The notes: generated from the letters alone by a model not told the origin. Shown: positions 544-16,921, numbered from the stretch's first letter. The stretch: 64,000 bases of DNA from Actinomycetota bacterium (GCA_041658625.1 JBAZZW010000002.1:538851-602850), one strand, 5' to 3'. Made by a program: numbers and translations.

Positions 544-1065
544 TCAGCCTACATTAATTGTTTCGCCAAGGTAAATCGTATATTGGTTGTCGCCGTACTG
601 AATGACGACGCTACCAGTGCCTATCGACAGCAGCTTAAAGTATTCCGCGAAGGTGTCGCCGACTCTCAAGCCCTCGTATAAAGTCCCGTTGACTTCGATC
701 GCCGCGGACGCCCCAAGCGGAATCGTTACCAGTTTTACCGTCGCGGACCCGGTTGGGGCAGCCCCGGTTGTGCTGGTTGTCCCGTCTTTATTTCTCCCTA
801 CATTGCTGGGACTACTGGACGATCCGCCAACCAACGGAGAAAAGGGGTCCTTGTTCTCATAAATCTCGTAGCCCTCGATCTTCCCGGCGGGCGTGGGCGT
901 TGTCTGTTGGGTTTCAGCTTTGGTTTTCGACGACGGTGTGGTTTCTTTTTGAAACTCGCTTCCGGTCGGCGTGGCGGCCAGGCACCCGCCCAGCGTAAAC
1001 GATATTCCCAGCAGGGCGCAAATCAACCATATCGAGACAGTTCGCTTTCCGTTAACCCTGATCAT
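544..1065 (-). CDS. PilP-like lipoprotein (type IV pilus assembly)
   Basis: 173 aa; signal peptide with lipobox LGGC, Thr/Pro/Ser-rich linker, C-terminal beta-domain; lies directly after pilM/N/O-like genes. Confidence 0.5.
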   Translation of the reverse strand: MIRVNGKRTVSIWLICALLGISFTLGGCLAATPTGSEFQKETTPSSKTKAETQQTTPTPAGKIEGYEIYENKDPFSPLVGGSSSSPSNVGRNKDGTTSTTGAAPTGSATVKLVTIPLGASAAIEVNGTLYEGLRVGDTFAEYFKLLSIGTGSVVIQYGDNQYTIYLGETINVG

Positions 1066-1715
1066 TGGGCGGCTCCTGTCGATGAACCGCCTGCGCTAGT
1101 CGCGGCGCCTTGAGCCGATCCTGTCTCCCCTGTAGTTCCGCTGGGGGCGGCGGTTTTCGCGCCGGTAACGCCGGGGGAAATTATATATGCGTTGGCTTTT
1201 ACCGTTACCTCGATGTTCGGCAACTTAGCCTTGCCTTCCTTGACGTCGATACCGGTTACGTTGATAATCCGCTGTAGCTTCTCCAGTCTGTAGATGAAGT
1301 CAAGGAGCGAGAAGAAGTATCCGTCTATCTGCATTTCCATCGTCACTTCTTTAAAGTCCGTCTTCTGGACCGGATTCGAAGGTTTAATCGATAACAGCGC
1401 GATACCGGATTTTACTGAGACATCTTCAATCTGGACGAGCAAGGCCGGTAGTTCCGCGCCGCTTTCCGGTGCCTTCTTGTCCAAGCGCAAGAGTTCGTTG
1501 TCGGTTTTGCGGCTGGCTTTCTTGAGCTCTTCCAGTTGGCTGTATGTAGCCTTTGAGCTGTTTAGCTCGGTCATCGCCGACTGTTCCTCGACTCCCAGCG
1601 TTCCCAGCCGTAGTATCTGCGGAACAACAAAGAAACCGATAAACAAGAGCAGTATCGCCGCTAAGATTACACCGATCAATGCTATTTGTTGTTTTGGAGT
1701 CAGCTTAAAACTCAT
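1062..1715 (-). CDS. pilO: type IV pilus assembly protein PilO-like
   Basis: 217 aa; N-terminal TM helix, coiled-coil, periplasmic domain; 4-nt overlap with pilN-like gene. Confidence 0.65.
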   Translation of the reverse strand: MSFKLTPKQQIALIGVILAAILLLFIGFFVVPQILRLGTLGVEEQSAMTELNSSKATYSQLEELKKASRKTDNELLRLDKKAPESGAELPALLVQIEDVSVKSGIALLSIKPSNPVQKTDFKEVTMEMQIDGYFFSLLDFIYRLEKLQRIINVTGIDVKEGKAKLPNIEVTVKANAYIISPGVTGAKTAAPSGTTGETGSAQGAATSAGGSSTGAAQ

Positions 1716-2380
1716 GGCGTCGCCTTGTTTGTGGTCGAGGTTTCTTTGAACTTGGTCAAATAAACCGTCGTCTGAAACTCAATGACCTTTACCGGCTGCG
1801 CGGCCACGGCCGTAGGCGCGGACGTGGTTTCAGCAGCCAGCGTCTGTTCCGTCGCATAATCCAGCCATACGCCCCGGAACTGGTTAATTTCGTTCAAATG
1901 AACCAGCCATCTCGCGACCGCCGCGTGGTTAAACGCGTAACCGATGATCGTAATCGGAGGCTTGGGCGCGGTTTTCGCCGCGGCGCCGGAAGCTTCCTTA
2001 GCTGTCAGAATCTCGCCCAGGTCCACCTTGACGCTCTTTAACCAGATGTCGTTTGGCACGACCATGCTGATATCGTTCAGGATGCTCGACCATTGAACCT
2101 GGTTCTCGGTCATCTTTACGATAATCGCCTGGCGTTCGTCCAAGGCCTTCTTTCTATCCTGGTACGGCTTTAACTTCTCTGTATATTGCTGAACTTTAAC
2201 GTTTTCGCTTTTGATTATATCGACGCGCTCGCTGGCCATCATGGCCTGGGCTAACGTGATTAAATATACCGCTAGGGCAACCCCGAAGACCGCGGCGAAG
2301 ACGATTCCCATGAGCGCGATAATCCGCCGCGATTTATGTTTCTCAACTACTTCAGGTGGGATTAGGTCTATGCGGGTCAT
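1712..2380 (-). CDS. pilN: type IV pilus assembly protein PilN-like
   Basis: 222 aa; N-terminus MTRIDLIPPE then single TM helix, typical PilN architecture; overlaps pilM stop. Confidence 0.7.
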   Translation of the reverse strand: MTRIDLIPPEVVEKHKSRRIIALMGIVFAAVFGVALAVYLITLAQAMMASERVDIIKSENVKVQQYTEKLKPYQDRKKALDERQAIIVKMTENQVQWSSILNDISMVVPNDIWLKSVKVDLGEILTAKEASGAAAKTAPKPPITIIGYAFNHAAVARWLVHLNEINQFRGVWLDYATEQTLAAETTSAPTAVAAQPVKVIEFQTTVYLTKFKETSTTNKATP

Positions 2381-3498
2381 TTCTCGGTCTCCCGTAACGC
2401 CAATCCTATCGGCACGGCCAACGCCGGCTCGATTTCCTGGAACTCGGTTTCAGTCAGCTGCATTTTCCCGACTTTCACGTTCTGTAGGGGCATGCCGTAC
2501 CTGACATTGATCTGCAAGGCTTTTTCCAGTTCGTCTCGTAGCCCGCCGATCTTCGCCCCACGCCCGCTAAGGACGATTGATTCCGGCGGCTTGCACCCTG
2601 TCTGGTCCAAACAGTAGTCTATGGACCGGCGGATTTCCCTGACAAACGATGCGATCCGGTTGCGCAGAATCTCCTGGGCCGCTTCTTTCTTCTCCAGCGA
2701 AGGCTTGGGAATCGCGGGGTTTTCGCTTTCCGCTAGCGAAATCTTCAACTCCTCCGCTTCTTCCTCGGTGATATTCATGTTATCGGCCAGGGCTCTCGTA
2801 AAGTCGTTCCCGCCGAACAGAAGAATTCTGACGAAGTATGGCAGACCTTCCTCGACGATAATCATGTTGCTGACGCCTGCGCCGATGTTCAACAAGCAAG
2901 ACGTTTCCAGAGCTTCCTTGGCTTGTTCGTCGGATGGAAAAGCCGGCAGACGCGGAATCAACGAGCGCATAAGCGCGAATGATTTGACATCTATGGAGGC
3001 CGGGTACAGACCGGCGCCCGACAATGCTTCCACAAACGATTGGATCATTTCCCTCTGCGCTGCGACCAAGAGCACTTTGATGTTTTTCTCGTCCTCTTTG
3101 ACTTGATATTCCTTAAGGATCTCGAAATCGATAATGGTTTCTTCCACCGGCATCGGGATGTAGTCGGCTGCCTGGAATTTGATCGCGCCCTTGAGCTCTT
3201 CATCGCTCATTTGCGGCATATCGATAACGCGCACGATTACTTTTTGGTTGGCCACGCCGAGGACGATGTTCTGTTTCGGGAACTTGTTCTTAGCCCAAAG
3301 GTCTTTGAGGATGGCCGAAACCGCTTTGGCGTCGGCTATTTCGCCGTCGACAACCAGGTTTTCGGGAATGCGGACGATTCCGACCTTGTCTAATACCGGC
3401 GGTTGCTTGCCTGTTTGAATCTCCACCACGCGAATCGACCTGGTCCCTATGTCAAGACCTATGGCCTGCGTCGGTTTGCCTAATGAGAAAAGCGCCAC
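2377..3498 (-). CDS. pilM: type IV pilus assembly ATPase-like protein PilM (actin-like fold)
   Basis: 373 aa; N-terminal IGLDIGTRSIRVVE sugar-kinase/actin-like motif, PilM-like length. Confidence 0.85.
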   Translation of the reverse strand: MALFSLGKPTQAIGLDIGTRSIRVVEIQTGKQPPVLDKVGIVRIPENLVVDGEIADAKAVSAILKDLWAKNKFPKQNIVLGVANQKVIVRVIDMPQMSDEELKGAIKFQAADYIPMPVEETIIDFEILKEYQVKEDEKNIKVLLVAAQREMIQSFVEALSGAGLYPASIDVKSFALMRSLIPRLPAFPSDEQAKEALETSCLLNIGAGVSNMIIVEEGLPYFVRILLFGGNDFTRALADNMNITEEEAEELKISLAESENPAIPKPSLEKKEAAQEILRNRIASFVREIRRSIDYCLDQTGCKPPESIVLSGRGAKIGGLRDELEKALQINVRYGMPLQNVKVGKMQLTETEFQEIEPALAVPIGLALRETEK

Positions 3499-3499
3499 G

Positions 3500-3682
3500 T
3501 TAACCTCCGCGGGCTGCGTTTGATTCTTTGGAGAGATACTTGTTGACGGCTAGGGATTTAATACGGTAGCCGCGACCGACGCGAACTGCCGGAAGCTGCC
3601 CCACTTTGATTAGCCGGTAGACCGTCATCTTTGAAACACGAAGATGTGTCGCGACCTCAGATACCGTCATCAGCGTCTTCAT
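3500..3682 (-). CDS. excisionase-family helix-turn-helix DNA-binding protein
   Basis: 60 aa; LMTVSEVATHLRVSKMTVYRLIKVGQLPAVRVGRGYRI matches HTH_17/excisionase-type domain; 2 nt upstream of pilM. Confidence 0.6.
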   Translation of the reverse strand: MKTLMTVSEVATHLRVSKMTVYRLIKVGQLPAVRVGRGYRIKSLAVNKYLSKESNAARGG

Positions 3683-3736
3683 TAAGCCACCTCATGTGTA
3701 TTGCCTGCTCAAGCTACACTTAGGAATATTATCACT

Positions 3737-3817
3737 AGTTAACATTAGTTGTCAATCGTTACCAGTTCTTAACAACTGTATTACCTCGTTAACACGAGTT
3801 AACATCAGTAACATCGG
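3737..3817. promoter_or_regulatory. cluster of GTTAACA direct repeats (three copies at 10-bp spacing) upstream of HTH-pilMNOP operon
   Basis: GTTAAC at 3738, 3788 and 3798, GTAACA at 3809, plus GTTACC/TTAACA variants; sits 55-135 bp upstream of the 3682 start codon. Confidence 0.35.
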
Positions 3818-4126
3818 GCAATGCAAGTGAACACTTTAGTGTTTTCTTGGTTTTTTTATGAGCATTGCGGGGACGCCATATTAGATAGTAAGAGCTAAAT
3901 TCTTTCCAGCGGCCGGTTACCGCTGACCGTTGTCTGATTATTCTTCTCTTAGAATATTCGACAGGGCTTCCGTTGGCTGCATGGTGGTTCTTGAATTGGT
4001 CTATAAAGCTTTCATTCGCACCTGGTAACCTTTGCATCCTTCGTCTTCGAGTTTAGGTTCGAGCATCCCTTTCAGTTTTCAGATGCGGAGGGCTCACAGT
4101 CTCTTCAAACTTGGCATATTGCCTGG

Positions 4127-4591
4127 TTAGCTGCCTGTTGGATAAACCTTTATCCGGCCGATGCTTGTGGTTCTGATTACCATAGAGCGCTTGTTGACGA
4201 GCGCAGAGAACAAAAGCGGCACCCGTGCCCGACTCTCCACCTCAACATATACTTCAGTGTTAACAACTTTGACGTCTAACAGCTCCGCACCGCACAAACC
4301 ATCCAGGTTCTTCTCTACCCATTCCATGGCATCTTCATCGGAGGCATAGTTGTTTCGCGACCCGGATTCCGCCGCCTCACGTAGATCGATTTCCTCAGCA
4401 ACCTCACGCGCCGCGACGTCACTTGCCTTATATAGTTCCGCCTTAGCCGCCATCACCCGCCCGGCATCAATGCTCCACCCCATAAACAACAAAACCACCG
4501 GCATTATCGCCACAATCAAAACCGTAATTGACCCTTCTTGTGGCTTATGTTCTAAGTTCGTTCTCTTTTTACATGCATCAATTATTTTCAT
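4127..4591 (-). CDS. TadE/TadG-like pilus assembly (pseudopilin-like) protein
   Basis: 154 aa; N-terminal GSITVLIVAIMPVVLLFMGWSIDAGR...AAREVA resembles the TadE-like N-terminal domain. Confidence 0.45.
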   Translation of the reverse strand: MKIIDACKKRTNLEHKPQEGSITVLIVAIMPVVLLFMGWSIDAGRVMAAKAELYKASDVAAREVAEEIDLREAAESGSRNNYASDEDAMEWVEKNLDGLCGAELLDVKVVNTEVYVEVESRARVPLLFSALVNKRSMVIRTTSIGRIKVYPTGS

Positions 4592-4610
4592 TTTACGTCC
4601 ATGATTTTAC

Positions 4611-4634
4611 GGACACATTCCCGGGAATGTGTCC
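4611..4634. promoter_or_regulatory. 24-bp perfect palindrome GGACACATTCCCGGGAATGTGTCC (copy 1), between arsR-like gene and TadE-like gene
   Basis: Read directly; identical to copy 2 at 5041..5064; candidate operator or RNA hairpin. Confidence 0.5.
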
Positions 4635-4639
4635 GTCGA

Positions 4640-5038
4640 CTAATGGAGATATTTCCTAAAGAGACTGCTAAGGTTGCCTAGCATCACGTCCGTGACCACC
4701 CGACTGTCTTTGTCTTCTATTTCTCTGTTAAAGGAGTGTATTACAAGAAATAGCAGCATTTCATTCCTTAACGACAATCTGACCTTGCGAACTCTATAAT
4801 AGATAAACGATCCCCTGTTTCTATAGGTAACAAATCCGGCTTTGTTCAGGTCGCTTAGATTCCGCGAAACTGTTTTAACAGGCCACCCGCCCCGAATGCT
4901 GATTTCACCAACAGTTAGCGGTCCTGTATTGTTGAGCATTTCAAGTATCTCCAAACGTTTTCTGAAGCCAAGGACTTTGAAAATATTCGCCAAATCATCA
5001 AGTTCGTTCTTCTTTGTCATTTTCTCCTTTGCAAACAT
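4640..5038 (-). CDS. ArsR/SmtB-family transcriptional regulator
   Basis: 132 aa; winged-HTH LEILEMLNNTGPLTVGEISIRGGWPVKTVSRNLSDLNKAGFV; alternative start at ATG 5020 with AGGAG RBS. Confidence 0.8.
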   Translation of the reverse strand: MFAKEKMTKKNELDDLANIFKVLGFRKRLEILEMLNNTGPLTVGEISIRGGWPVKTVSRNLSDLNKAGFVTYRNRGSFIYYRVRKVRLSLRNEMLLFLVIHSFNREIEDKDSRVVTDVMLGNLSSLFRKYLH

Positions 5039-5040
5039 CA

Positions 5041-5064
5041 GGACACATTCCCGGGAATGTGTCC
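5041..5064. promoter_or_regulatory. 24-bp perfect palindrome GGACACATTCCCGGGAATGTGTCC (copy 2), immediately upstream of arsR-like gene
   Basis: Read directly; exact duplicate of 4611..4634. Confidence 0.5.
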
Positions 5065-5070
5065 TTACTT

Positions 5071-5835
5071 TTAAAAACTTACACTTCCGGTGTCTTGGAG
5101 AGAACGTGCAAAAGGCAGTTCGGGGGCCTTCTGCCCGGTTTCATTTATGTTTACGCCACGGAATGAGTTAATCGGGATTTCAAAATAAACAGTTGCCGTT
5201 GAGCCGTCTATCGCGGTGATTTGGACATAGTGCGTGCCTTGACCGCCGAAATCATATTCGCCCCTGGCTGTTATGTTGTTTGATAGTTGCGGATCCGTGA
5301 ATTGTCCAGTCGCCAGCGTAACCGTGTAATGCGATCCGTTTCGATCCTGCCGCCCGACAACAGCGTACACTCGATAAGACTGGATTGGTTTGTTTGCGGA
5401 GAACGCGATATTTAGGTCTAGGTGGGCCGGTTCGTCATTTTGACTCTGCCGGCGCCCGTCTTCTGTTAAATAATGCCAGCGGGTAAAAACATACGGTGGC
5501 GACTTTGCCACAGAAACCGTCACCTGCAACGGTTCTGCCCAATACCCGCTGGCCGCCCACTCTTGATAGGTCTGCCAATATCCGCTTGCAACCCAGGTTG
5601 AATATGGCGCCCAAGCCCAGTAGCTTGTGTCCACCCACGTCCAGTAGCTCTTATCGTGCCATTGCCACCAAGCCCCGACCCAGCCGGCACCAGGGCAATA
5701 CACGTCGCTTCGATGCTTATGATACCCCCATGCATAAGCGAAATACATCGGCCCCCAATTCATGCCAATTAGGGAGTCATCCTGAGGAGCAGAAGAGATG
5801 ACTGGCGACGAGGGAACTCTCACGATTCTACTCAT
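5071..5835 (-). CDS. hypothetical protein with Trp/Tyr-rich repeats (SYW/GYW every ~8 residues) and a C-terminal beta-rich domain
   Basis: 254-aa longest ORF in the region; unusual composition; no family recognised. Confidence 0.4.
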   Translation of the reverse strand: MSRIVRVPSSPVISSAPQDDSLIGMNWGPMYFAYAWGYHKHRSDVYCPGAGWVGAWWQWHDKSYWTWVDTSYWAWAPYSTWVASGYWQTYQEWAASGYWAEPLQVTVSVAKSPPYVFTRWHYLTEDGRRQSQNDEPAHLDLNIAFSANKPIQSYRVYAVVGRQDRNGSHYTVTLATGQFTDPQLSNNITARGEYDFGGQGTHYVQITAIDGSTATVYFEIPINSFRGVNINETGQKAPELPFARSLQDTGSVSF

Positions 5836-6200
5836 TCAGCCACAATCGTGCCTTGAGAATCGCTGGACAGTGAGGCAATCGCTTATAGAATCATCCGAAT
5901 GCTTGCCGACAAGTTTAATCCGATGTTGGCTCCCCGGGTTGTATGTTTTTCGCACATTCCGAGCTTGCATAAGACAAACCGAGGTCGTCTTCGACGCATC
6001 TACGAAAAAGCATATCCTTAAAAATGCCAATTGCTGCTTCGTCAAAATACACGTTTTCACACCTTCTGCCCGATGCTGGGCAAGGAGGCAATAAAGAACT
6101 TGGACGCATTGATAAAAGAGAATAGCGAGAAATGCCTGGACGTTGCCTCATAGTAATTGGCTGCAAAATCGACAAACAGAACTTACATAATAATGCGAGG

Positions 6201-8945
6201 CTACTTGGGCGGTTTAGCTGCTTTCAGTCGTTGTACGGCCCACTCGTTTGAAAGATCAAGCGATTGGTTTAGCTCGAACGAGGTGTCAGCTCGTTTCTTC
6301 TCAGCATTTCGAACTTCTTTGACGGAATCGTAGAACTGTTTGCCAATCAGACGTTGTTTCTCAATTGGAATTACCGGTACTGGTATTGCTCCAAGATCAT
6401 CCCATTCAACGCGGTGTCTACTAATACCTGTGGATTGAGATAAAAGGCGGGCTCGGACTTCGGGGCTTCGAAGAAATCCCCATAAAAACCAAACATCGAA
6501 TCTTGCGTCCTTAAGTCGCATAATAGTAAACTCCGACGAGGCAATTACACCCGAGAGGTCAGCAGGAATCACGGCAATGGAACCGAGGGCAGCAGCAATG
6601 TTGCTTGCTACAATATCATTTTCTTTTGGGTTTTGAACTTTACTATATGTAAGTTCTTCTCCGAGCGCCTTATCGCCTTCCTCGGGGATTCCGTCATATC
6701 GAACACGCAGTAATGTGTTTAGTTTGCTAGGCTCGTTTTTCGGATTGAAGCCCTCATTTTCAATCTTGTCGACTATTGTGTGTAGGGGAACAACATTAAG
6801 GCCATCGGCACGCCATTTGTCAGAAATGTCATTTGGGCGGGGGAGACACGACTTAACATCAAGACGATCTCCAATAAGGCCGCTCCTGACCCGCCAAGGG
6901 CCCTTTATCCCCTGCATAAAAAGATTAAAAGCCTCAAAAAGGTCCCTAGTTTCGTCTTCAGCTGCGGTACGAGCTTCAGCTGCTTTACTAGGCCGTGTCT
7001 TCATGGGCACATCATCAAGGCCTACGTAGCGACATTCATACATAAAGGCATCCGGCTGACTTTGCTTTTTCGCGTCCCGCCGAATGAGGTATAGGACCGA
7101 TGTCTTTGCACGAGCTCCAACACGTTGAAATGCGTCCCCAGGGATACTGATTACGGCACGAACTATAAAGCGATCCCTTATAAAATCTCGTGCGAAACGA
7201 TTATTTGAGGAACTCAAGATTGAGTCGTCAATTACAGTTACGAGTTTACCGCCTGGCTTAAGAATGTCTGCATATCGTTCTAAGAACATAATGCTCGACT
7301 TTAATGATGGGCGTTGTCTATTTGTTTTCCCAAAGCCAAAGGTCCTTAGAGCGTACTGGTTGAGAATTAAAGCCTCGTCTGGCAGCGTCTCTGAGTAATC
7401 CATCGAGAATGGTGGATTTGTTAGAACGATATCGAAACCTCGTCTGCTTCCATTTGATATTTCGAAAATAAGTTTCTGAAGCTCTTCGAGCTCAAAACGC
7501 GATTGCTGATCATCTCCGACACCATGAGACACTGTCTTATCAAGGCTGTCCGCCGCATATATCCGGCTACCGCCGTCTCCATGGAGATACATGTTGATTC
7601 GTGAAATCTTTGCTAATGGTGGTTCTTTACCTGCATCAATGCCAAATATGGAATCGTTGGCGACCCTTTCTAACAAGGCGTTTTGTTCGCTGTCGCTCAG
7701 AGAAGTGTTAGATCGAATTTGATTCCGCATGTCGGTGAGGGCTTCAATAAGGAAGCCTCCTGAACCACAACAGGCATCAATTACATGGTCAATATGGTCT
7801 TTTGATGCAATTGGGGCAGCGAGTTGTTCCATCATTTTTACAATAGACCTGGGTGTAAAGTATTGCCCCAAGGCTTGTCCCCGCATGGTGGCACTTAAGA
7901 ACGTCTCAAACAAACGACCGTTAAGGTCCTCATCAATGCTGTACAAATCAAGTGATTCTAGTTTCGAGACAACTTGTCTGATTGTTCCTATCTGGAGTTC
8001 AATATGGTCATTTGGCCCAAATATCGGTTTCTTCTTTCCTCGGGCAACGTCCTCTCTAAGAACTTCATTAAGCCTGGCAAAAAGGGTCTCATCAACTGGA
8101 TTCTTTACCCCCTGTGACTGCAGAGCATCAATCCAATGCGTTGAGAAGATAACATTGTCCCGTGGTATTGGTTTCTCGTCTCGTAGTAAAGGCCCCATTA
8201 TGGGGTCATCGTGTAGTTTTCGATCCTCCCAAAGCTTTACGAACATTATTTTTACGAACTCAAAGAAAGCAGGTTGAGGATTCATCTTCTCAGCTTTCCA
8301 TATAAGTCTATGACAGCTGTTAAAAACCCTTTTGATCTCCTCAACAGAAGGCTTTTTCATTAGAAAGCGTGGCTTTTGTATCGAAGGCTTCAGGCCTTGC
8401 CTAATAGTAGTAGCCTGAAGTAACGAGCGTACCGAAAAGAAGCTTATGTTGTCATCAGCAAAGTCGGAAAATTCCAGGCTGATTATAGGCTTGCTCTCAT
8501 CCCATTTATAAAGGTCAAATGCGAGACCATTAGTTATTACGTAGTATGAACAGGGGTTTTGATTGCTAAACTCTTGATTAAGCCCTAACGCATATCCAGC
8601 ACCTTGAAAAGCCCACTTGTCGATATCTTCCCCTGGTGATTTTGCATCGATTAGCCACATAGGCTTCTCGTTACAGTAGATGACGTAATCTGGCCTATAG
8701 CCTTCTTTTTTTCTGCCTCTGGCTACAACAATCTCTTTAAGAGATACCTTTGGCCGGATTTCAGAGTCTTTGTAGCCGAGATCCTTTAGCAAACGATTTA
8801 TAAAGAATGTCTCGACTGAAGACTCATCAACTAAAACCGCTTTATCACAGTATTTGTTTGACTTCGCGTCCTTGCCAGCGCGACTCAAAGAGTCTAGGAG
8901 CGTAGGGCGAAGTAGGTCACTTTGCGGGGTTTTTGACTGTTTCAT
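6201..8945 (-). CDS. single-chain restriction-modification enzyme: PD-(D/E)xK nuclease + gamma-class N6-adenine methyltransferase + HsdS-like target-recognition domain (Type IIG-like)
   Basis: 914 aa; N-terminal RPDYVIYCNE...WLIDAKSPGE nuclease core; MTase motif I VIDACCGSGGFL then motif IV NPPF; C-terminal IPVPVIPIEKQRLI typical of HsdS TRD ends. Confidence 0.75.
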   Translation of the reverse strand: MKQSKTPQSDLLRPTLLDSLSRAGKDAKSNKYCDKAVLVDESSVETFFINRLLKDLGYKDSEIRPKVSLKEIVVARGRKKEGYRPDYVIYCNEKPMWLIDAKSPGEDIDKWAFQGAGYALGLNQEFSNQNPCSYYVITNGLAFDLYKWDESKPIISLEFSDFADDNISFFSVRSLLQATTIRQGLKPSIQKPRFLMKKPSVEEIKRVFNSCHRLIWKAEKMNPQPAFFEFVKIMFVKLWEDRKLHDDPIMGPLLRDEKPIPRDNVIFSTHWIDALQSQGVKNPVDETLFARLNEVLREDVARGKKKPIFGPNDHIELQIGTIRQVVSKLESLDLYSIDEDLNGRLFETFLSATMRGQALGQYFTPRSIVKMMEQLAAPIASKDHIDHVIDACCGSGGFLIEALTDMRNQIRSNTSLSDSEQNALLERVANDSIFGIDAGKEPPLAKISRINMYLHGDGGSRIYAADSLDKTVSHGVGDDQQSRFELEELQKLIFEISNGSRRGFDIVLTNPPFSMDYSETLPDEALILNQYALRTFGFGKTNRQRPSLKSSIMFLERYADILKPGGKLVTVIDDSILSSSNNRFARDFIRDRFIVRAVISIPGDAFQRVGARAKTSVLYLIRRDAKKQSQPDAFMYECRYVGLDDVPMKTRPSKAAEARTAAEDETRDLFEAFNLFMQGIKGPWRVRSGLIGDRLDVKSCLPRPNDISDKWRADGLNVVPLHTIVDKIENEGFNPKNEPSKLNTLLRVRYDGIPEEGDKALGEELTYSKVQNPKENDIVASNIAAALGSIAVIPADLSGVIASSEFTIMRLKDARFDVWFLWGFLRSPEVRARLLSQSTGISRHRVEWDDLGAIPVPVIPIEKQRLIGKQFYDSVKEVRNAEKKRADTSFELNQSLDLSNEWAVQRLKAAKPPK

Positions 8946-9354
8946 GTGTTCATTATCATTTGACGGAAGAACTGCGTCAAGGTTCGGCCAAACACTGTCC
9001 TATATAGCGGTCAAGTGACAGACAACTAGACAACCCATTGCTAGGCGCATTGTTCATAGAAAAGGTCAGCCAAGTAAGTTATTTAATTTCTATCTAATAA
9101 GCCATGGCAAAACCTCATCACTCTTCGGTAATCATAGAGAATGTTCGAAGACGCTCCGGCGGCCGCTGTCGCGTCACTGTAAAGTGTCAACAGAAACGGG
9201 GGAACTCCAACTCCAGTTTGTTGTTTATTGTAGCCGAGTGGGCTACGAGTCTTCTTCAAAAGAATATTCCATATACATAGCGTTTCCTCAGCTCTTGAGG
9301 TTTAGCACTTGAAAGTACATAATGAACCTAATCTTGTCTACTGGGGAGTTAATT

Positions 9355-11817
9355 ATGCCTTTGAAGATTAAGCTTAAGAATCAGTTTCGTGAGCCCCTCA
9401 ATACGGATGCGGGTTTCGTCGGTCGTGAAGACGAATTGGCGCGACTCATTACGATATTTCAGCAGAGGCAAGCCGCAACAGTCCTAGTCGCTGGACATCG
9501 AGGGGTAGGCAAGAGCGCACTGGTTGACGAGGCCTTAAAACGCTCGCAAGCCGACAAGAAAAAGCGCGTAGTTGCTCGATTGACGTTGCCCCATCTATCG
9601 CCCGGTAGTTCGGATATTCGAGATCAAATACTTCAATCGCTGGCGCGCTCGCTATATTTCTCTATCAAAGACGACAATAGCGTTCCAAAACCTCTTCGCG
9701 AAGTCAGCAAGGTTCTATATGATAAGACCTATTTGAAGGAACTACACGAGCAGACTGGGGTCGAGTCATTATTCGAAACCGAAGCTAAAGCCCGATCAGC
9801 GACAAAGACAAAGACTTCAATCGCTTTTGGCAAGATAGTTTCACTTATTGTCGGAACGTCGCTCTCTGGTGTGGTTGCTATCGGAGGAATCGCGGTTATT
9901 TCGAGAATCGTTACGGATCATGGCCTGAGTTGGGGAATAGTGGCTAGCGCTGTCGTGTTGGTTACGGTTGTGCTTTCAGCTTATCAACTTAATCTCGAAA
10001 AAGAGGATGAGAATACGACTATTGACAAGGCAACGGCTTCTAACAAGATAAACCGAATCGGTCTTTACGACGTATCTCCCGAGACCCTTGAATTTGAGCT
10101 TCGCGATCTTATAAAGGAGCTTGCAGCTAAAGGTCATCCTTGTGTCTTCGTGATTGACGAACTTGATAAGCTAGAGGCTTTTCCCAAAGGCGTTCAGCAG
10201 GACCCTGAAAGCGCTGGGCAGGATTTTAAAAAACACATCATATTCAGGATTTTGTCCAGTTTGAAAAACTTCTTTACATTGGGTTCTGGAATATTTGTGT
10301 TTATTTCAGGGGAAGATTTCTACGCCCAACTAAATGGACCCATTGAAACAGACATCTATTCGTTAGCTCATACCTTGTTCACTGATCAGGTTTTTGTTCA
10401 GGTTCTCTACTATCAGGACGTGGAGCGCTTGATTGAGCAGATTATTGCCGAAACGCCTGCGGACGAGGAGGAGTACCATCGCTTCAGGAACTATTTGTGT
10501 TGGCGCTCTCGAAATCATGTGTTTGATCTCTTATCACTCATCGGGGAATTTGTCAGATTTGATAATCGAGGCCAGCCATTTCTTTGGGGAGAGAAATCAG
10601 GAGCTCAGGACGGGCATTGGCATGAAGGCAATCTACCGACGAACTGGGAAGTTGCTGCTGCTCTGCAGAAAATAGTGGGGGCCGCTTATGATGAATCGGC
10701 GAGGCCGTCTGCTGGAGAGCAGCGTTTCAATCAAGCATTGTGGCTTACCCAACTGCGAACGGCCTATGATCTGTTCGCTGATATGCCCGTGAAGGTGCCA
10801 GAGGCTGGTTTTGAGTTGCCTGCTGCTTATGCCTGGGTAAAGAATCTAACGCCAAACGATCTTGATGACCTTGCTGGCGCAGTCGAGCGTCTGCTGGCTA
10901 AACTTGAGAGGTATGGTGCGGTAAGAGTAGTCTCGGAGACACTCACTCCCGAGACAGAAGGCCAGCCCGATGTCTCTGTGACTAGCTATACACTAGTTGA
11001 AAACCCACCTTATCCGCCCACGTCAGTCAACTCTGAAGTACAAAGAATCCCACTTGAGGATTATTATCTCGATATCGGGGCGAAAGCGGAGCACCTCGCA
11101 AAGAATCTATCCGTCTTGGGCATTGAGACACCGCAGTTATCCGATGAAATCAACGCTGTCGTCGATCTAATACTCGCAGTCAAGAACATTTCGCCACGAA
11201 ACACAGTACCGAGAAGCAGGGTCAAAGAAGGAATTAAACGAGCAGACGTTCTTGCCGAACAGATGGTCGAGACCGGCGTTAATGCAGTTATTACAAAATG
11301 GGCGGCGGATCACGGGATGCAGCTTAGTCAGGCACTTTCAGAAATTGAAAACAAAACTGGCACGCCCTGGCAAGACTCGCTTACCAGTGAGTTCCCAGAG
11401 TTTGTTGAGGCTTTGGACATAAGCGAGGTTGAATACTTCATCATCGGAGGTTCAACTTCCGAGAACCAGGTTTTAGTGCTGAATAATCGACGAGATCGTG
11501 ATTTGACGGCAGTAAGCGAGGCTTATTCAAAATCCTTGCCTGGTGAAAAGGGTCGCGATAGACGGAAACAACGTCTTCCGATAGTTGTAGTGAGCCAGTT
11601 GTCTCCCGGCAAAAATCCTCAGATTCCACGCGAAGTCGTTGAGGTTATCCAAGAAACCGAAGGTTGGTCTTTCTTCTCTGCCGTACTTGGACTTTTACCG
11701 AAAACGAAGAGAGTCAAAACGAATCTGGCAGGATGGACTGTCTTTTCTCTCGATCCTAGCTTGGATAATTTGGAAGACCTACCAGCTGAACTAGAAACGG
11801 TCTCATACATTACATAG
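9355..11817 (+). CDS. KAP-family-like P-loop NTPase with two TM helices inserted between Walker A and Walker B; ~550-aa uncharacterised C-terminal region
   Basis: Walker A VLVAGHRGVGKSAL (about 9484-9510), two hydrophobic helices (about 9814-9997), Walker B CVFVIDELDKLE (about 10135-10170). Start taken at ATG 9355 (GGGGAG RBS) rather than track start 9322. Confidence 0.65.
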   Translation: MPLKIKLKNQFREPLNTDAGFVGREDELARLITIFQQRQAATVLVAGHRGVGKSALVDEALKRSQADKKKRVVARLTLPHLSPGSSDIRDQILQSLARSLYFSIKDDNSVPKPLREVSKVLYDKTYLKELHEQTGVESLFETEAKARSATKTKTSIAFGKIVSLIVGTSLSGVVAIGGIAVISRIVTDHGLSWGIVASAVVLVTVVLSAYQLNLEKEDENTTIDKATASNKINRIGLYDVSPETLEFELRDLIKELAAKGHPCVFVIDELDKLEAFPKGVQQDPESAGQDFKKHIIFRILSSLKNFFTLGSGIFVFISGEDFYAQLNGPIETDIYSLAHTLFTDQVFVQVLYYQDVERLIEQIIAETPADEEEYHRFRNYLCWRSRNHVFDLLSLIGEFVRFDNRGQPFLWGEKSGAQDGHWHEGNLPTNWEVAAALQKIVGAAYDESARPSAGEQRFNQALWLTQLRTAYDLFADMPVKVPEAGFELPAAYAWVKNLTPNDLDDLAGAVERLLAKLERYGAVRVVSETLTPETEGQPDVSVTSYTLVENPPYPPTSVNSEVQRIPLEDYYLDIGAKAEHLAKNLSVLGIETPQLSDEINAVVDLILAVKNISPRNTVPRSRVKEGIKRADVLAEQMVETGVNAVITKWAADHGMQLSQALSEIENKTGTPWQDSLTSEFPEFVEALDISEVEYFIIGGSTSENQVLVLNNRRDRDLTAVSEAYSKSLPGEKGRDRRKQRLPIVVVSQLSPGKNPQIPREVVEVIQETEGWSFFSAVLGLLPKTKRVKTNLAGWTVFSLDPSLDNLEDLPAELETVSYIT

Positions 11818-11994
11818 CTATGTTGCCTAGCATTCTTACAACAGATTTCGAAACAGCAATGAAAACTATCGAGTGCATCTAATGTTCATCGAATAAGTCA
11901 CCGCAAAACTCCGCTACTCCTCGTTAATCACAGAGTACTCTCTTTAAAGACAATCCGCAGACAAGGACAGCCATCGGGTGATATAGTAATACAT

Positions 11995-12059
11995 TGTTGG
12001 TTGCGCTGGAGGGACTACGAATCCGTAGGTTGGAGGTTCGGCTCCTCTCGGGCGCGCCA
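11995..12059 (+). other. tRNA-like 3' fragment (T-arm-like GGAGG-TTCGGCT-CCTCT, acceptor-like CGGGCGC, G, CCA); no matching 5' acceptor strand
   Basis: Read directly; antisense ORF 11924..12130 translates to the RSRTSNLRIRSP-type peptide typical of tRNA-derived DNA. Possible degenerate tRNA or integration-site remnant. Confidence 0.25.
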
Positions 12060-12161
12060 CATCTCACCTGGGCAACAGATGATGATTTCTTTAATTGACA
12101 AGGTATTATCTGGGGCAATCTAATACTCATCTAATATTGATTGTCGCCGACAAGGAAGGCA

Positions 12162-13028
12162 ATGATATACAAAGGCTTGTACTCTCAGCGCAAGAAAATA
12201 AACCCTGATGAAGATGTTTTTTCATATTCGCTCCCTGCCCCAGTAAGAGCTGCAATATTTAATATTATTAAAAACACCAATCCGAATTGGTCATCTCACG
12301 GCAAAACCCGAAGGCCTTTAAAGGCCATTGTTAAGGATTTTTGTGAAAATCATTTATTTCACGGGATTACACCAAGAGCAGAAGACGCTTTTGCATCTGG
12401 GTACCAATACGCCGACCACCAACTTACCGATGACCTTAAGGCATGGATCCAAACGACTCCACAAGAATCTTTGTTTGATTTTATTGAAGTAGCAATTATT
12501 AATATGAGCGAGTCTAATTTAACGACGCTTGTTAAAGATATTAATGATTTGTTTCAAAGGGAAATGATTGGATTTGAGATTGTAAACGGAAACATTATTG
12601 ACAAGTCTGATGAATTCCTTCATCAAGAAGTTGTTCTGCAGCCAATTCTTGGGCTAAAAGCAGGAGGATTTGAAAAAGCCGAACAAGACTTCATGAAGGC
12701 ATTGCAGGAATATGCCCACAAAGATTATGCGGGAGCCCTTACAAGTGCTAATACTGCGCAGGAAAGCGTTATGAAGAGGATTCTTGGAGTCGAAAAAGGT
12801 GTGTCAAGTGATTTGGTTAAGACATTAGTTGAAAGGGGCATAATCCCTTCATATATGCAGAATAAAATGTTACTGCCCGTTTCGATAAGAAACAAAGATA
12901 GCGACGCACACGGCAGGCTTGATCCAATTGACGTCACGCCGGAACTAGCTCAATACGCGATTCATTGTGTCGGGGCTAATGTTGTGTTCTTGCTCAAAGT
13001 TACGAATATGGACGGCACCCAACAATAG
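12162..13028 (+). CDS. hypothetical protein with C-terminal HEPN-like Rx6H motif (candidate abortive-infection/RNase-type effector)
   Basis: ATG 12162 preceded by AAGGAAGG RBS (track start 12141 is TTG); C-terminal SIRNKDSDAHGRLD fits the HEPN Rx4-6H motif; AT-rich gene. Confidence 0.45.
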   Translation: MIYKGLYSQRKKINPDEDVFSYSLPAPVRAAIFNIIKNTNPNWSSHGKTRRPLKAIVKDFCENHLFHGITPRAEDAFASGYQYADHQLTDDLKAWIQTTPQESLFDFIEVAIINMSESNLTTLVKDINDLFQREMIGFEIVNGNIIDKSDEFLHQEVVLQPILGLKAGGFEKAEQDFMKALQEYAHKDYAGALTSANTAQESVMKRILGVEKGVSSDLVKTLVERGIIPSYMQNKMLLPVSIRNKDSDAHGRLDPIDVTPELAQYAIHCVGANVVFLLKVTNMDGTQQ

Positions 13029-13070
13029 CTGTTTATCGGTTTTGGGTTTCTCGTTTTTAGGAATAATTGC

Positions 13071-13118
13071 AACCAGACTCATAATCCGCGGCAAGTTCGA
13101 GTCCTGCTGTGTTCCCCA
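13071..13118 (+). other. second tRNA-like 3' fragment (CTCATAA loop-like segment, T-loop TTCGAGT, terminal CCCA); no 5' acceptor strand
   Basis: Read directly; GGCAAGTTCGAGTCCTGC resembles a T-arm; lies just downstream of the HEPN-motif gene. Confidence 0.25.
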
Positions 13119-13192
13119 AACAGGAGCTAATAAAAAGGCCGACTCCAATAAACAGACGTCTCTTCTCCTATTAGTTCATGTTTATCGCCTTG

Positions 13193-13591
13193 CTATTTCA
13201 AAGATCGCGCCCTTTGCGAGGCGACATATTCTTCTAGGTCGCTTTTCTGTACTCTCCACGACCCCGCTCCAGCGCCAATCCTGAAGCCTAGCAAGAGCTT
13301 CTTGTTTAGCATGTCGTAGACCTGCGCCTCAGAGAACCGCAACAGCTTGGCGACCTCGCTGACTGTCAGCAAACGATTAGGGTCAGCCATCTTGGCGGCT
13401 TCTTTTTCCGCCGCCTTTTCGTGATACTTTCTGGCGTCCTCGGCGTTAATGAACTTACGCCGGCCGAAGCGAGTGGTCCGGAATTCCCCGCGGCGCATCA
13501 TCTTGCGAACCGTGTTCGGCTCCATTTGTAAAATCTCCGCAACTTCCTCAACACTTATATATCCCGTTTTGTTAGACATATTCATGACCAC
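13193..13591 (-). CDS. DNA-binding protein with two tandem excisionase-type HTH domains
   Basis: 132 aa; YISVEEVAEILQMEPNTVRKMMRRGEF and LLTVSEVAKLLRFSEAQVYDMLNKK are both HTH_17-like. Confidence 0.6.
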   Translation of the reverse strand: MVMNMSNKTGYISVEEVAEILQMEPNTVRKMMRRGEFRTTRFGRRKFINAEDARKYHEKAAEKEAAKMADPNRLLTVSEVAKLLRFSEAQVYDMLNKKLLLGFRIGAGAGSWRVQKSDLEEYVASQRARSLK

Positions 13592-13650
13592 TTTCGTTTG
13601 CTTCAGTCTTCCGTTATCTTCATATATATCAACAATATATCATATTTCAT

Positions 13651-14472
13651 TTAACTTGTTACTAATCCGCCGTAGCCAACGACACTCGCCGTATCCATGC
13701 TGAAGTCGGCGCTGGTCGCGTACTTAATTAGCTCCGCCTTGGTGGCGCCCAGTTCTTTGGCCGCGTATAGCATGATCGCCACAGGTCCTACTCCGCACAT
13801 AGTGATGTCGTTTTCATAGACGGTCTGAAGCAGAAATTCCGGATCCAAGGCCAGAATCGCGTCTATCGCCAGCTTGTCCAATGATTCGGCAACCGATAAA
13901 GGCTCATAATGGGTGAAATCAGTCGATGCGACGATTAAGACGTCTTCTTTTTCCTGACGGATCGCCTCCGCGATGGCGTGCCCAACCTCCCGGTAGACGG
14001 TTATGTCAGGGAGTCCCTTAATAGCAACCGGCACGAAGGTAAAGTCATTACCGGTTATCACCTGCAGGAAGGGCAACTGAACTTCAACGGAATGCTCCAG
14101 CCGATGAGCGTCATAGCTGACTTTGATGTTCTTGCTGTTGGCCATCATACGCGCGGCCAGCGCTTCGTCTATGTCTGCGTTTCCCAGTGGGGTCTTCCAG
14201 GTCCCCGTGTCTTCGATTGAAATCGGGAAGCCGAACCCTGAGTGATTAGGCCCGATAACAATAAACCGTTTTGGAGGCTCGATCGCTCCATATACGCTGC
14301 CGGCAACCGGGCCGGAATATTCGTAACCCGCGTGAGGAACGACGATCCCTTTGGCTTTTACTTTCGACTCTCGCTCGGCTTGTGCCTTTAGAAGCTTCTT
14401 GACGTCCCTTGTCAGCCCTTCTTCGTAACCCAAGTAGAACAGTCCGGCCGCGTAAGGTGTCCGCTTATTCAT
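13651..14472 (-). CDS. AmmeMemoRadiSam system protein B (MEMO1-family)
   Basis: 273 aa; motifs VVPHAGYEYSG, HSVEVQLPFLQ, STDFTHY, CGVGP. Confidence 0.85.
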   Translation of the reverse strand: MNKRTPYAAGLFYLGYEEGLTRDVKKLLKAQAERESKVKAKGIVVPHAGYEYSGPVAGSVYGAIEPPKRFIVIGPNHSGFGFPISIEDTGTWKTPLGNADIDEALAARMMANSKNIKVSYDAHRLEHSVEVQLPFLQVITGNDFTFVPVAIKGLPDITVYREVGHAIAEAIRQEKEDVLIVASTDFTHYEPLSVAESLDKLAIDAILALDPEFLLQTVYENDITMCGVGPVAIMLYAAKELGATKAELIKYATSADFSMDTASVVGYGGLVTS

Positions 14473-15382
14473 TGGTTGGGTTCCCCCTCCCTACGTTCAT
14501 CATGGCAATATAGTCTCCGTCAATCGATTTGCTGACGAGTTTCGCCATTTCAAGTACCACCAAAATACTACTTACTTTTCCACATTGCAAGCCCGTTTCA
14601 TAAATAATTTTTGTTATCGCTTTTGGAGTTCCTTCTATCGCAGATAACACGGCATTTTCTTCTGCTGTTAGAGTTCCTCTAAAATGACTAATATCTACTT
14701 TGCCTTGTCCTTTTTCTGATTTGCTTGTAGGTATTTCAAGTTCTTCCAGGATGTCCTCGGCGGATTCAACTAAACAGGCTCCTGCTTTTAGAAGCTTGTT
14801 TGGAGTTGCGCTGTTCCGACTGGTAACTGATCCGGGTAGCGCGTAAACGTCTCGACCCTGCGACAAGGCCATATCAGCTGTAATTAGCGTCCCGCTTCTG
14901 GCCGCGCCCTCAACGACCAAAACGCCTATGGACAATCCGCTGATAATCCGGTTTCGCGAGGGAAAATGGTCGCCGCGAGGTTGGGTACCCGGGGGATGCT
15001 CACTTACAAGAGATCCGGCCGAAGCGATCGCTCTTTGCAGTTTCCGGTTGACTGCCGGGTAGTAAACGTCTGCTCCGCAGCCAAGGACGGCCACGGTTCC
15101 GCCTCCGCCGTCCAAGGCGCCCCGATGAGCGGCGGCGTCAACACCTTCTGCCAGACCACTAATTATCAACATTCCATTTTCGCTTAACTCTCGAGAGATT
15201 GAGTAGGCCATATCAAGCCCGTACTTAGTCGCCCTTCTGGAGCCCACAACAGCAAAACCGGCCCGATTGTCCCTGTTAACTGTGTTGATAAGATTCCCGA
15301 CAACATAGAGTTTCTCCGGCGGATCAGGAATCAGTCTCAGCATTTCCGGGTACCGCGTATCGGTTTTTCTAAGAATCATCAA
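14465..15382 (-). CDS. dprA: DNA-processing protein DprA (Smf family)
   Basis: 305 aa; Rossmann-like core VVGSRRATKYG...SGLAEGVDAAAHRGAL...VAVLGCG. Confidence 0.85.
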   Translation of the reverse strand: MMILRKTDTRYPEMLRLIPDPPEKLYVVGNLINTVNRDNRAGFAVVGSRRATKYGLDMAYSISRELSENGMLIISGLAEGVDAAAHRGALDGGGGTVAVLGCGADVYYPAVNRKLQRAIASAGSLVSEHPPGTQPRGDHFPSRNRIISGLSIGVLVVEGAARSGTLITADMALSQGRDVYALPGSVTSRNSATPNKLLKAGACLVESAEDILEELEIPTSKSEKGQGKVDISHFRGTLTAEENAVLSAIEGTPKAITKIIYETGLQCGKVSSILVVLEMAKLVSKSIDGDYIAMMNVGRGNPTNE

Positions 15383-16921
15383 CTAAATAATCCTTACCTC
15401 TCTATCAAGCGCCCGATATTGAACAGCCTCCGCGATATGTTCTATGCGTATGTCGTTTTCGCCAGCCAGATCCGCGATTGTCCGCGCGAGGCGCTTAACC
15501 TTTGAATAAGCCCGCGCAGTCATGCCGAACCGATCAATCGCTTGACCCAAGAACTCTTGTGCCTGAGAATCAAGACGGCAGAATTCACGCATCATTCTCG
15601 GTTTAAGGCGCGCGTTAACCCTAACGCCCGTTCCTTTCATTCTTTCAATCTGCCGCCGTCTGGCTTCGACCACCCGCGCCCTTATGCACCCAGAGGCTTC
15701 TCCATCCTGCTCAGACAACATTTGTTCCTTGCTGACCCTTCCGATCTGAACATGCATGTCAATCCGGTCTCTTAGCGGCCCGCTCATTTTTGAGCGGTAG
15801 TGTCTTATCTCTTGCGGCGTACAATCACAATCCCTAACGGTATCGCCAAGAAATCCGCACGGGCAAGGATTCATAGCGGCTATTAACATGAATTCGGTCG
15901 GGTAATCCACGATGCCTGCCGCGCGTGATACTGTTACCCGGCCGCTTTCAATCGGCTGCCTCATGACCTCTAGTACATGCCTTTTAAACTCGTTCACCTC
16001 GTCCAAGAAGAGAACTCCGTTATGACTTAAACTGACCTCGCCCGGCTTTGGCACTGTTCCGCCGCCGATTAATCCGATATCCGAAATCGTGTGGTGCGGG
16101 CTGCGGAACGGCCGTTCCGTAATTAGCGGACAATCCGCTGTAAGCATTCGCGCCGTACTGTAGACTTTTGTCGTCTCGATAGCCTCTTCGATGTCAAGTT
16201 CCGGCAGAATTCCTGGAAACGCTTCTGCCAGCATAGTTTTTCCAGATCCTGGCGGACCGAACATAAGAAGGTTATGTCCGCCGGCCGCGGCTATTTCCAT
16301 CGCCCGTTTGGCCTGGTCTTGACCGCGGATCTCGCACATATCTTGAGATTCCGTCGACATATCTTTCAACAGCCGTTCTACGTCAATCTTCACCGGCTTT
16401 ATGCTCGACTCGGCAGATAAAAACGTTGCGGCTTCTAAAAGATTGTTCACGGGGATAACATCGACTCCCCTGACAAGCGCGGCTTCCGGCGCGTTTTCTG
16501 CCGGGACGATAATCCCTGCGCGTCCGGACCCCCTGGCATATAGAGAAAAAGGCAAAGCTCCGGCAACTCGTCGTACAGATCCATCCAGAGCGAGTTCTCC
16601 GACAACAACATAGCTGTCAGGCTTTTTTTGCTTAATTTGCTTTGTGGCTATTAAGATTGACAAGGCGATCGGCAAATCGAAAGATGGTCCTTCCTTACGA
16701 AGATCAGCGGGTGCCAGGTTTACCGTTATTCGTCGCTTGGGAAATATAAACTCCGAATTTGTGATACCCGCCTTAACGCGCTCCCTTGATTCCCTAATTG
16801 CCGTGTCGGGTAGGCCGACAACGATAAATCCGGGAAGCCCGCCAACGACATGCGCCTCAACCTCTACCCCGCAAGCGTCTATCCCAATGACAGATGATGA
16901 TGTGATTCTAGCGATCATCAA
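15383..16921 (-). CDS. comM: YifB/ComM-family Mg-chelatase-like AAA+ ATPase
   Basis: 512 aa; N-terminal Lon-like domain, Walker A GPPGSGKT, Walker B VLFLDE, C-terminal ChlI-like region. Confidence 0.9.
   Translation of the reverse strand: MMIARITSSSVIGIDACGVEVEAHVVGGLPGFIVVGLPDTAIRESRERVKAGITNSEFIFPKRRITVNLAPADLRKEGPSFDLPIALSILIATKQIKQKKPDSYVVVGELALDGSVRRVAGALPFSLYARGSGRAGIIVPAENAPEAALVRGVDVIPVNNLLEAATFLSAESSIKPVKIDVERLLKDMSTESQDMCEIRGQDQAKRAMEIAAAGGHNLLMFGPPGSGKTMLAEAFPGILPELDIEEAIETTKVYSTARMLTADCPLITERPFRSPHHTISDIGLIGGGTVPKPGEVSLSHNGVLFLDEVNEFKRHVLEVMRQPIESGRVTVSRAAGIVDYPTEFMLIAAMNPCPCGFLGDTVRDCDCTPQEIRHYRSKMSGPLRDRIDMHVQIGRVSKEQMLSEQDGEASGCIRARVVEARRRQIERMKGTGVRVNARLKPRMMREFCRLDSQAQEFLGQAIDRFGMTARAYSKVKRLARTIADLAGENDIRIEHIAEAVQYRALDREVRII

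Follow-up and report, generated by a model that had tools for sequence, protein, structure and literature searches.

A tryptophan-rich reading frame on an Actinomycetota contig as the 5'-truncated remnant of a conserved Tad pilus locus gene

PilY1 and PilC are non-pilin, pilus-associated adhesins of type IVa pili, while TcpF and CofJ, encoded in type IVb operons, depend functionally on a minor pilin. In Aggregatibacter, tadF is positioned between tadE-like and tadG-like genes. To our knowledge, no tip adhesin or wall-crossing component has been described for monoderm Tad pili. The gene family examined here is a concrete and testable candidate for either role. It is a conserved, unannotated Tad-locus gene of uncultured subsurface Actinomycetota and some Firmicutes-like genomes, and it carries an unusual Trp-ladder repeat for which we found no Pfam model, solved structure or paper. 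For the copy from which this work started, the result is mostly corrective, as its missing signal peptide is an artefact of the insertion of a defence island that erased the Tad locus.

That copy lies near one end of the window, by which we mean the whole 64-kb stretch of DNA that was analyzed. The ORF and its parts are as follows.

5071..5835, minus strand: Trp-rich ORF, 254 aa
5758..5835, minus strand: 26 codons without homology (MSRIVRVPSSPVISSAPQDDSLIGMN), lying beyond the breakpoint on the side of the island
5071..5757, minus strand: retained 3' part of the Trp-rich Tad-locus gene, 228 codons plus stop, equivalent to residues 122-349 of the full-length homologue P0002
5536..5757, minus strand: Trp/Tyr-rich repeat segment, residues 27-100, defined by composition and motif counts
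5071..5535, minus strand: conserved C-terminal beta-sandwich domain, residues 101-254

An earlier note on this DNA had drawn attention to the reiterated Trp/Tyr-rich composition of the ORF as very unusual, and this observation holds. Residues 27-100 include 14 Trp (18.9%) and 10 Tyr (13.5%), compared with means of 1.03% Trp and 3.02% Tyr across the window's 61 ORFs of 150 aa or more. The richest 74-aa stretch of the ORF has 24 Trp and Tyr residues, against 10 in the best other ORF of the window. Units of the form W-x-x-[ST]-[SG]-[HY]-W occur three times, at residues 67, 81 and 93, and the peptide KSYWTWVDTSYWAWAPYSTWVASGYWQTYQEWAASGYW corresponds to residues 62-99. The frame is coding, with 16 homologues at E<=1e-44 and a dN/dS of 0.12 relative to the orthologue in L001, the closest intact relative. 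Opposite-strand ORFs at 5496-5801 and 4842-5171 were rejected as coding in favor of this homologue-supported frame. The repeat segment is the second of two beta-meander blocks found in the family and comprises three WV(D/A)(T/S)(S/G)YW units. The domain that follows it contains the motifs K-x-P-x-YVFT-x-WH and IP(I/V)NG(F/Y) and the terminal Phe, and it retains all of the invariant columns of the family's C-terminal domain. A family profile search recovered the window protein (P0001) at E=1.1e-76.

The ORF had also been read as an intact protein, a view that does not survive comparison with its relatives, as it lacks the first ~121 codons of the family, which encode the signal peptide and the initial block of repeats. 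Complete homologues of 331-376 aa align to only the last 90% of the query, and in the alignment their N-termini extend ~100-120 residues beyond the window ORF. This extension consists of a signal peptide with basic, hydrophobic and AxA regions (in P0002, ..FLISNVGSASA/DDWVK, the slash marking cleavage), a first repeat block (WVDTSHWETRxRWIDTSHWETxWGWxWVSSGYW), and then a Cys/Trp-rich linker. When five full-length homologues were searched against the window by tblastn, residues 122-349 of P0002 matched 5757-5074 (E=5.6e-124) and residues 1-121 had no match anywhere in it. In the DNA alignment the breakpoint falls precisely at 5757/5758, with homology only below nucleotide 5757. Upstream of a WGPM motif the window ORF has no similarity to any homologue, and none of the three reading frames upstream of the ORF is related to the family N-terminus.

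The 26 foreign codons beyond the breakpoint happen to provide ATG (5835) and GTG (5823) starts, and gene callers place products of 254, 250 or 146 aa at the locus. No clear Shine-Dalgarno sequence precedes any candidate start, which is uninformative given that many real genes here lack one. An in-frame upstream ORF (5836-6060) ends with TGA immediately before the ATG; read-through of this TGA was considered and rejected, as the translation of that ORF is unlike the family N-terminus. A Sec-type N-terminal signal peptide is absent from the window ORF, in which the best 15-residue Kyte-Doolittle mean within the first 60 aa is 0.55, while 65 of the 77 family members reach at least 2.0 in a hydrophobic 15-mer at the N-terminus. 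The earlier statement that the protein has no signal peptide is literally true, but only through the 5' truncation of its gene. Of the meander only the second half is left, and the 'YCCWDW' segment is gone. Measured against its homologues, the window ORF is a 5'-truncated remnant of a Tad-locus gene, beheaded at this breakpoint.

The intact locus is represented by L001, an 849-kb contig of GCA_040960625.1 with ~80% DNA identity to the window. Its gene order is ComM, DprA, Memo, TadE, TadZ (CbiA/AAA_31), HTH_17, a 162-aa product, T2SSE (TadA), two T2SSF proteins, a 58-aa product, DUF5666, the 349-aa family member, ArsR, Tad (TadE/G-like), HTH_17, PilM, PilN and PilO. On the window contig the order is ComM, DprA, Memo, HTH_17, a 67-aa product, an AbiJ-like protein, a STAND ATPase, N6_Mtase/Eco57I, the truncated gene (called at 250 aa), ArsR, Tad, HTH_17 and PilMNO. 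Alignment of the window with L001 by blastn gave four collinear blocks.

Window 17195-13661, L001 14-3545: ComM, DprA and Memo
Window 13570-13203, L001 5256-5623: HTH_17
Window 5757-5071, L001 10364-11050: 3' part of the Trp-rich gene, 78% identity
Window 4525-11, L001 11638-16169: TadG-like gene onward

The features of the window that lie around and between these blocks are listed below.

4127..4591, minus strand: TadE/G-like pseudopilin gene (Pfam PF13400 Tad, 7e-9)
5758..13202: island of ~7.4 kb, inserted or replacing (synteny by blastn, Pfam and PADLOC)
6201-8945, minus strand: fused RM methylase with HSDR_N, N6_Mtase/Eco57I and specificity-like domains
9322-11817, plus strand: STAND/AAA_16 (nSTAND-like) ATPase, 831 aa (Pfam, with a weak match to PADLOC PDC-S27)
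12141-13028, plus strand: AbiJ-like protein (AbiJ_NTD4/DUF7014; PADLOC PDC-S32)
13193..13591, minus strand: HTH_17 regulator (Pfam; blastn to L001 5256-5623)
13651-14472: Memo

By synteny, the island occupies the place of the rcpC-like gene, tadA, tadB, tadC, flp, the DUF5666 gene and codons 1-121 of the Trp-rich gene. No integrase or transposase was matched by Pfam among the island proteins scanned. The HTH_17 gene at 13193..13591 is, on this alignment, the sole surviving gene of the upstream tad locus. L001 3546-5255, which holds tadE and tadZ, has no counterpart in the window, and the same comparison identifies the loss of these two genes as a second, independent deletion in the same locus. 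Memo and HTH_17 are separated by only ~90 bp in the window (13571-13660), at the place where tadE and tadZ are found in relatives. No other tad core genes were found in the 64-kb window.

Two flanking gene groups deserve mention. The Tad locus is always beside comM (ChlI/Mg_chelatase), dprA and Memo in L001, L009, L010 and L013, and the corresponding genes occupy 13651-16921 in the window; the title of one paper, 'Novel Flp pilus biogenesis-dependent natural transformation' (PMC4322843), suggests that such pili may have a role in DNA uptake. On the other side, a group encoding HTH_17, PilM, PilN, PilO and a 173-aa product (544-3682) is intact and highly conserved, PilM being 94.6% identical to its L001 counterpart with a dN/dS of 0.04. 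Because these genes and the tad locus are unlinked in L009 and L010, which are more distantly related, the PilMNO genes are probably a separate type IV filament system.

The association of the Trp-rich gene with Tad genes extends well beyond L001. The typical order is tadZ, tadA, tadB, tadC, flp, tadE, a gene for a product of ~220 aa, the Trp-rich gene and a tadG-like gene. The neighborhood is conserved at 44-79% protein identity in L009, L010/L011, L012 and L013, where Memo, TadE, TadZ, HTH_17, RcpC/SAF, T2SSE, two T2SSF proteins, a 57-59 aa product, a 218-242 aa product, the family member, ArsR (in some) and Tad follow one another, and five further Pfam-labelled loci agree with this linkage. 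The 58-aa product encoded upstream in L001 has a class-III-like G/SEITE motif followed by a hydrophobic helix, and its counterpart in L095 gave a weak match to PF04964 Flp_Fap.

A metagenome scan with the motif WVD[TK]SH[WYL]E identified 212 relatives, for which 80 loci were retrieved. Genes matching tadZ/A/B/C/E were found upstream on the same strand in 29 of the 38 loci with at least 2 kb of upstream sequence, and at least one tad match was found in 51 of 67 informative loci, even though the queries were from Actinomycetota only. A TadG-like gene lies directly downstream in 35 of the 53 loci with at least 700 bp on that side, so the link previously drawn between the ORF and the TadE-like gene downstream of it stands as conserved gene order. 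Distant members on Firmicutes-like contigs, recognized by SpoVG and a Peptidase_A24 prepilin peptidase, were again inside tad-type loci. Named sources of the family are Actinomycetota / Candidatus Humimicrobiaceae MAGs and one Caldanaerobacter MAG, and all members carry the annotation 'hypothetical protein' and no Pfam domain. When 1.84 billion representatives were searched exhaustively by HMM, only 47 clusters were recovered at E<=1e-3. These neighborhoods establish the family, at the level of gene order, as a conserved resident of Tad pilus loci in uncultured Actinomycetota and on some Firmicutes-like contigs. At the window locus the TadG-like gene is still present downstream (4127-4591), and the upstream tad genes are replaced by the island.

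Intact members are 330-450 aa long and combine a cleavable Sec-type signal peptide (..AxA/DDWVK..), Trp-ladder repeats and a C-terminal Ig-like beta-sandwich. The repeats are 12-14 residues long (WVDTSHWETRxR or VWVSSGYWxx) and number from 0 to ~25 per member, with 3 in the window ORF versus 4-7 in its full-length close relatives. The sandwich, of ~150 aa with an invariant terminal Phe, is the conserved core of the family; P0034, P0039, P0042 and P0110 have no repeats and keep this domain. Five proteins of 640-670 aa (P0024, P0031, P0070, P0132 and P0134) have 20-25 tandem WVDTSHWE or WVSSGYW units and 8-9% Trp, and in one of them, P0031, the repeats are followed by a different C-terminus.

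AlphaFold2 modeling of P0002 gave a pLDDT of 66 with 14 sequences and a mean pLDDT of 79, with a pTM of 0.58, with 77 sequences; in the latter model pLDDT exceeds 90 in the meander and the sandwich. The model has a signal helix at residues 4-24, antiparallel strands at 45-95 and 145-195 (pLDDT ~85-97), a Cys/Trp-rich tip of low confidence at 96-144, and a beta-sandwich at 200-349 (pLDDT ~90-98). Two-residue turns between strands fall on the 'TS' and 'SG' of each type of unit, and in the predicted structure the repeats form a beta-meander with Trp at alternating positions. As modeled, this Trp-ladder meander would be a repeat fold without a solved counterpart.

Remote-homology and fold searches agreed with the earlier view that the protein matches no characterized family; the C-terminal sandwich of the AlphaFold models is of a generic Ig-like kind. 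Neither the ORF nor full-length P0002 was assigned to a family by scans against Pfam, NCBIfam, PHROGs and PADLOC; hmmscan against Pfam at E<=0.1 gave zero families for the ORF and only a spurious SprA_N match (0.07) for P0002. A sequence profile search of the PDB returned only noise (E>=0.3), and Foldseek found no PDB match at E<=1e-3. Weak profile matches to giant cadherin/HYR/Big-domain proteins were set aside as generic similarity of Ig-like strands. A literature search for the repeat motifs found nothing, and one for tryptophan-rich proteins in tad loci found no paper using the term 'tryptophan-rich'.

The best explanation of these observations, and one that we regard as likely, is that the window copy is a recently orphaned, non-functional remnant of a Tad locus and that the intact family is a pilus-associated surface binder. 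The locus was dismantled by two deletions, one removing tadE and tadZ, the other replacing the pilus core and the 5' end of the gene with the island. The intact protein would be a Sec-exported, non-pilin accessory factor of the Flp (Tad, type IVc) pilus, its conserved C-terminal domain docking on the TadE/TadG-like minor-pilin complex and its length-variable aromatic repeat array being presented as a surface- or glycan-binding module. The outcome would be a tip- or pilus-associated adhesin following the logic of PilY1 and TcpF/CofJ. Gene neighborhood and architecture together indicate that the intact family is probably a pilus-associated surface-binding protein. Tentatively, and with more reservation, we propose that it is an unrecognized, widely conserved component of monoderm Tad/Flp systems, in which the Ig-like domain would plug into the minor pilins, the Trp-ladder meander would be the ligand-binding head and the number of repeats would tune reach or avidity; the window copy would then record a defence island overwriting an adhesion organelle.

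A different role for the intact family, which we think unlikely although it accounts for several of the same features, is that of a scaffold in the cell envelope. Its aromatic repeats would attach to peptidoglycan or wall glycopolymer of the same cell, in the manner of choline- and cell-wall-binding repeats. Where the Tad pilus crosses the thick monoderm wall, the protein would keep it in place or guide it, replacing the secretin/pilotin components missing from monoderm loci. The loci are indeed of monoderm type, in Actinomycetota and on Firmicutes-like contigs with SpoVG, and no secretin family appears among their gene calls. A variable number of short aromatic tandem repeats and the Sec signal peptide would also suit such a protein. 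However, CW_binding, SLH, LysM and other wall-binding Pfam models were unmatched at E<=0.1, the gene sits among pseudopilin genes and not with the platform genes, and the repeat-less members that keep the C-terminal domain are more in keeping with an exchangeable ligand-binding head than with a wall anchor that the protein cannot do without.

For the window copy itself, we infer that it is most likely a recently orphaned, non-exported, non-functional relic that has not yet decayed, because an export signal and a genuine start are lacking, the meander is reduced to half and the window has no cognate pilus machinery. The pilus genes are absent from the 64-kb window, and a second tad locus elsewhere in the genome is possible. 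The remnant has no stops in 228 codons, no private changes at 36 otherwise invariant sites, and a dN/dS close to that of its TadG-like neighbor (0.11, at 78% identity to the L001 orthologue). A remnant without decay implies that the truncation is recent or that the sequence is still constrained, and the absence of decay is equally expected if a functional truncated product has remained under selection. The methylase gene lies 365 bp upstream in the same orientation, with no terminator-like site between it and the ORF (minus strand, 6201-5835), and the ORF may be transcribed by read-through from that gene.

It is accordingly conceivable, if improbable in our estimate, that the truncated ORF still functions, its Ig-like domain and half repeat array having been retained for a new role, possibly cytoplasmic or island-related, and being translated from ATG 5835, GTG 5823 or an internal GTG at 5511 on the methylase read-through transcript. 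The uninterrupted frame, the low dN/dS with no invariant site lost and the strand arrangement just described would all be expected of such a gene, as would the identical sequence found in three assemblies. The pairwise dN/dS, however, is dominated by the long history shared before the truncation (dS ~1.1) and therefore tells little about the period after it. The signal peptide is missing from a member of an exported family, as are the partner Cys-rich segment and the first block of repeats; neither a consistent start nor a Shine-Dalgarno sequence is seen, and the cognate pilus genes are absent from the window. These points favor the relic over a repurposed protein.

The ORF had further been proposed to head a module controlled by ArsR, a proposal that depends on the following features.

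4640..5038, minus strand: ArsR/SmtB-family regulator (Pfam HTH_5, NCBIfam NF033788)
5040..5065: palindrome copy 1, perfect (AGGACACATTCCC and GGGAATGTGTCCT on either side of its center), immediately upstream of the arsR ATG; putative ArsR operator 1
4610..4635: palindrome copy 2, between arsR and the TadG-like gene; putative ArsR operator 2

The 24-nt palindrome core GGACACATTCCCGGGAATGTGTCC has two exact copies in the 64 kb (5041-5064 and 4611-4634) and none in 100 shuffles. Copy 1 is 3' of the stop codon of the Trp-rich ORF, and no palindrome was found upstream of 5835. Because both copies flank arsR, downstream of the ORF, they place arsR and the TadG-like gene, not the Trp-rich gene, under ArsR. 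The window ArsR shares only ~30% identity with its positional counterparts in L001 and L012, and a regulator at this position is confined to the sub-clade of the window, L001 and L012, being absent in L009, L010 and most metagenomic loci. Each arsR is flanked by two palindrome copies whose sequence differs among the three genomes; the pairs lie at 11057-11094 and 11511-11548 in L001 and at 5713-5736 and ~6155-6188 in L012. This co-variation of regulator and operator suggests that ArsR regulates both its own gene and the TadG-like gene. A gap of ~440 bp (3683-4126), with only a doubtful 82-aa ORF (3789-4037), separates the latter from the small HTH_17 gene; L001 has a comparable gap (12037-12475). 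Nothing in the window reached the gathering threshold of Rfam.

Rather than heading a module, the ORF is the last part to survive from the flp-side operon of the Tad locus. The minus-strand order of ORF, palindrome, arsR and TadG-like gene does invite the reading of an intact, signal-less aromatic-repeat protein encoded by the first gene of an ArsR-co-regulated unit, but that reading has very little to commend it when every other full-length homologue has the N-terminal extension, the palindrome is 3' of the ORF and duplicated around arsR, most relatives have no arsR between the two genes, and a foreign island lies upstream. A chimeric contig, hiding a genome with an intact gene and tad locus, might be feared of a metagenome assembly, but it is scarcely credible here, with an identical junction-spanning protein on contigs of 155,910, 611,753 and 16,572 bp from different sources and with both island flanks syntenic with L001.

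Several known systems resemble the intact family in part. Choline- and cell-wall-binding repeats (CW_binding_1) are likewise short tandem repeats around conserved aromatics, variable in copy number, forming beta-hairpins (predicted or known) in surface proteins of monoderm bacteria. Their period is ~20 residues, whereas that of the family is 12-14, and they build a beta-beta solenoid where a flat beta-meander is predicted here; Pfam models for CW_binding_1/2, ChW, SLH, GW and LysM did not match the ORF or P0002 at E<=0.1. The pseudopilins TadE, TadF and TadG share the neighborhood of the family gene, which lies between tadE-like and tadG-like genes. Unlike them, the family lacks a class III (G/xxxxE) prepilin signal and has a classical AxA/DDW Sec N-terminus, and Pfam gave no match to PF07811 or PF13400 in the window ORF or P0002.

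The closer parallels are with non-pilin proteins of other type IV pili. TcpF and CofJ are also small, soluble proteins with a Sec signal peptide that are encoded inside a pilus operon, although PDB sequence and fold searches detected no homology and neither has aromatic tandem repeats. PilY1 and PilC differ in being ~1000 aa long and type IVa-associated, in contrast to ~350 aa and a Tad/Flp association, and there is no similarity in sequence or fold: the C-terminal part of PilY1 is a beta-propeller, while that of the family is predicted to be an Ig-like sandwich of ~150 aa, and no Neisseria_PilC domain was matched by Pfam. Like the family, PilY1 and PilC are Sec-exported non-pilins encoded among minor-pilin genes, with a conserved C-terminal part, a variable N-terminal part and a proposed docking on minor pilins at the pilus tip.
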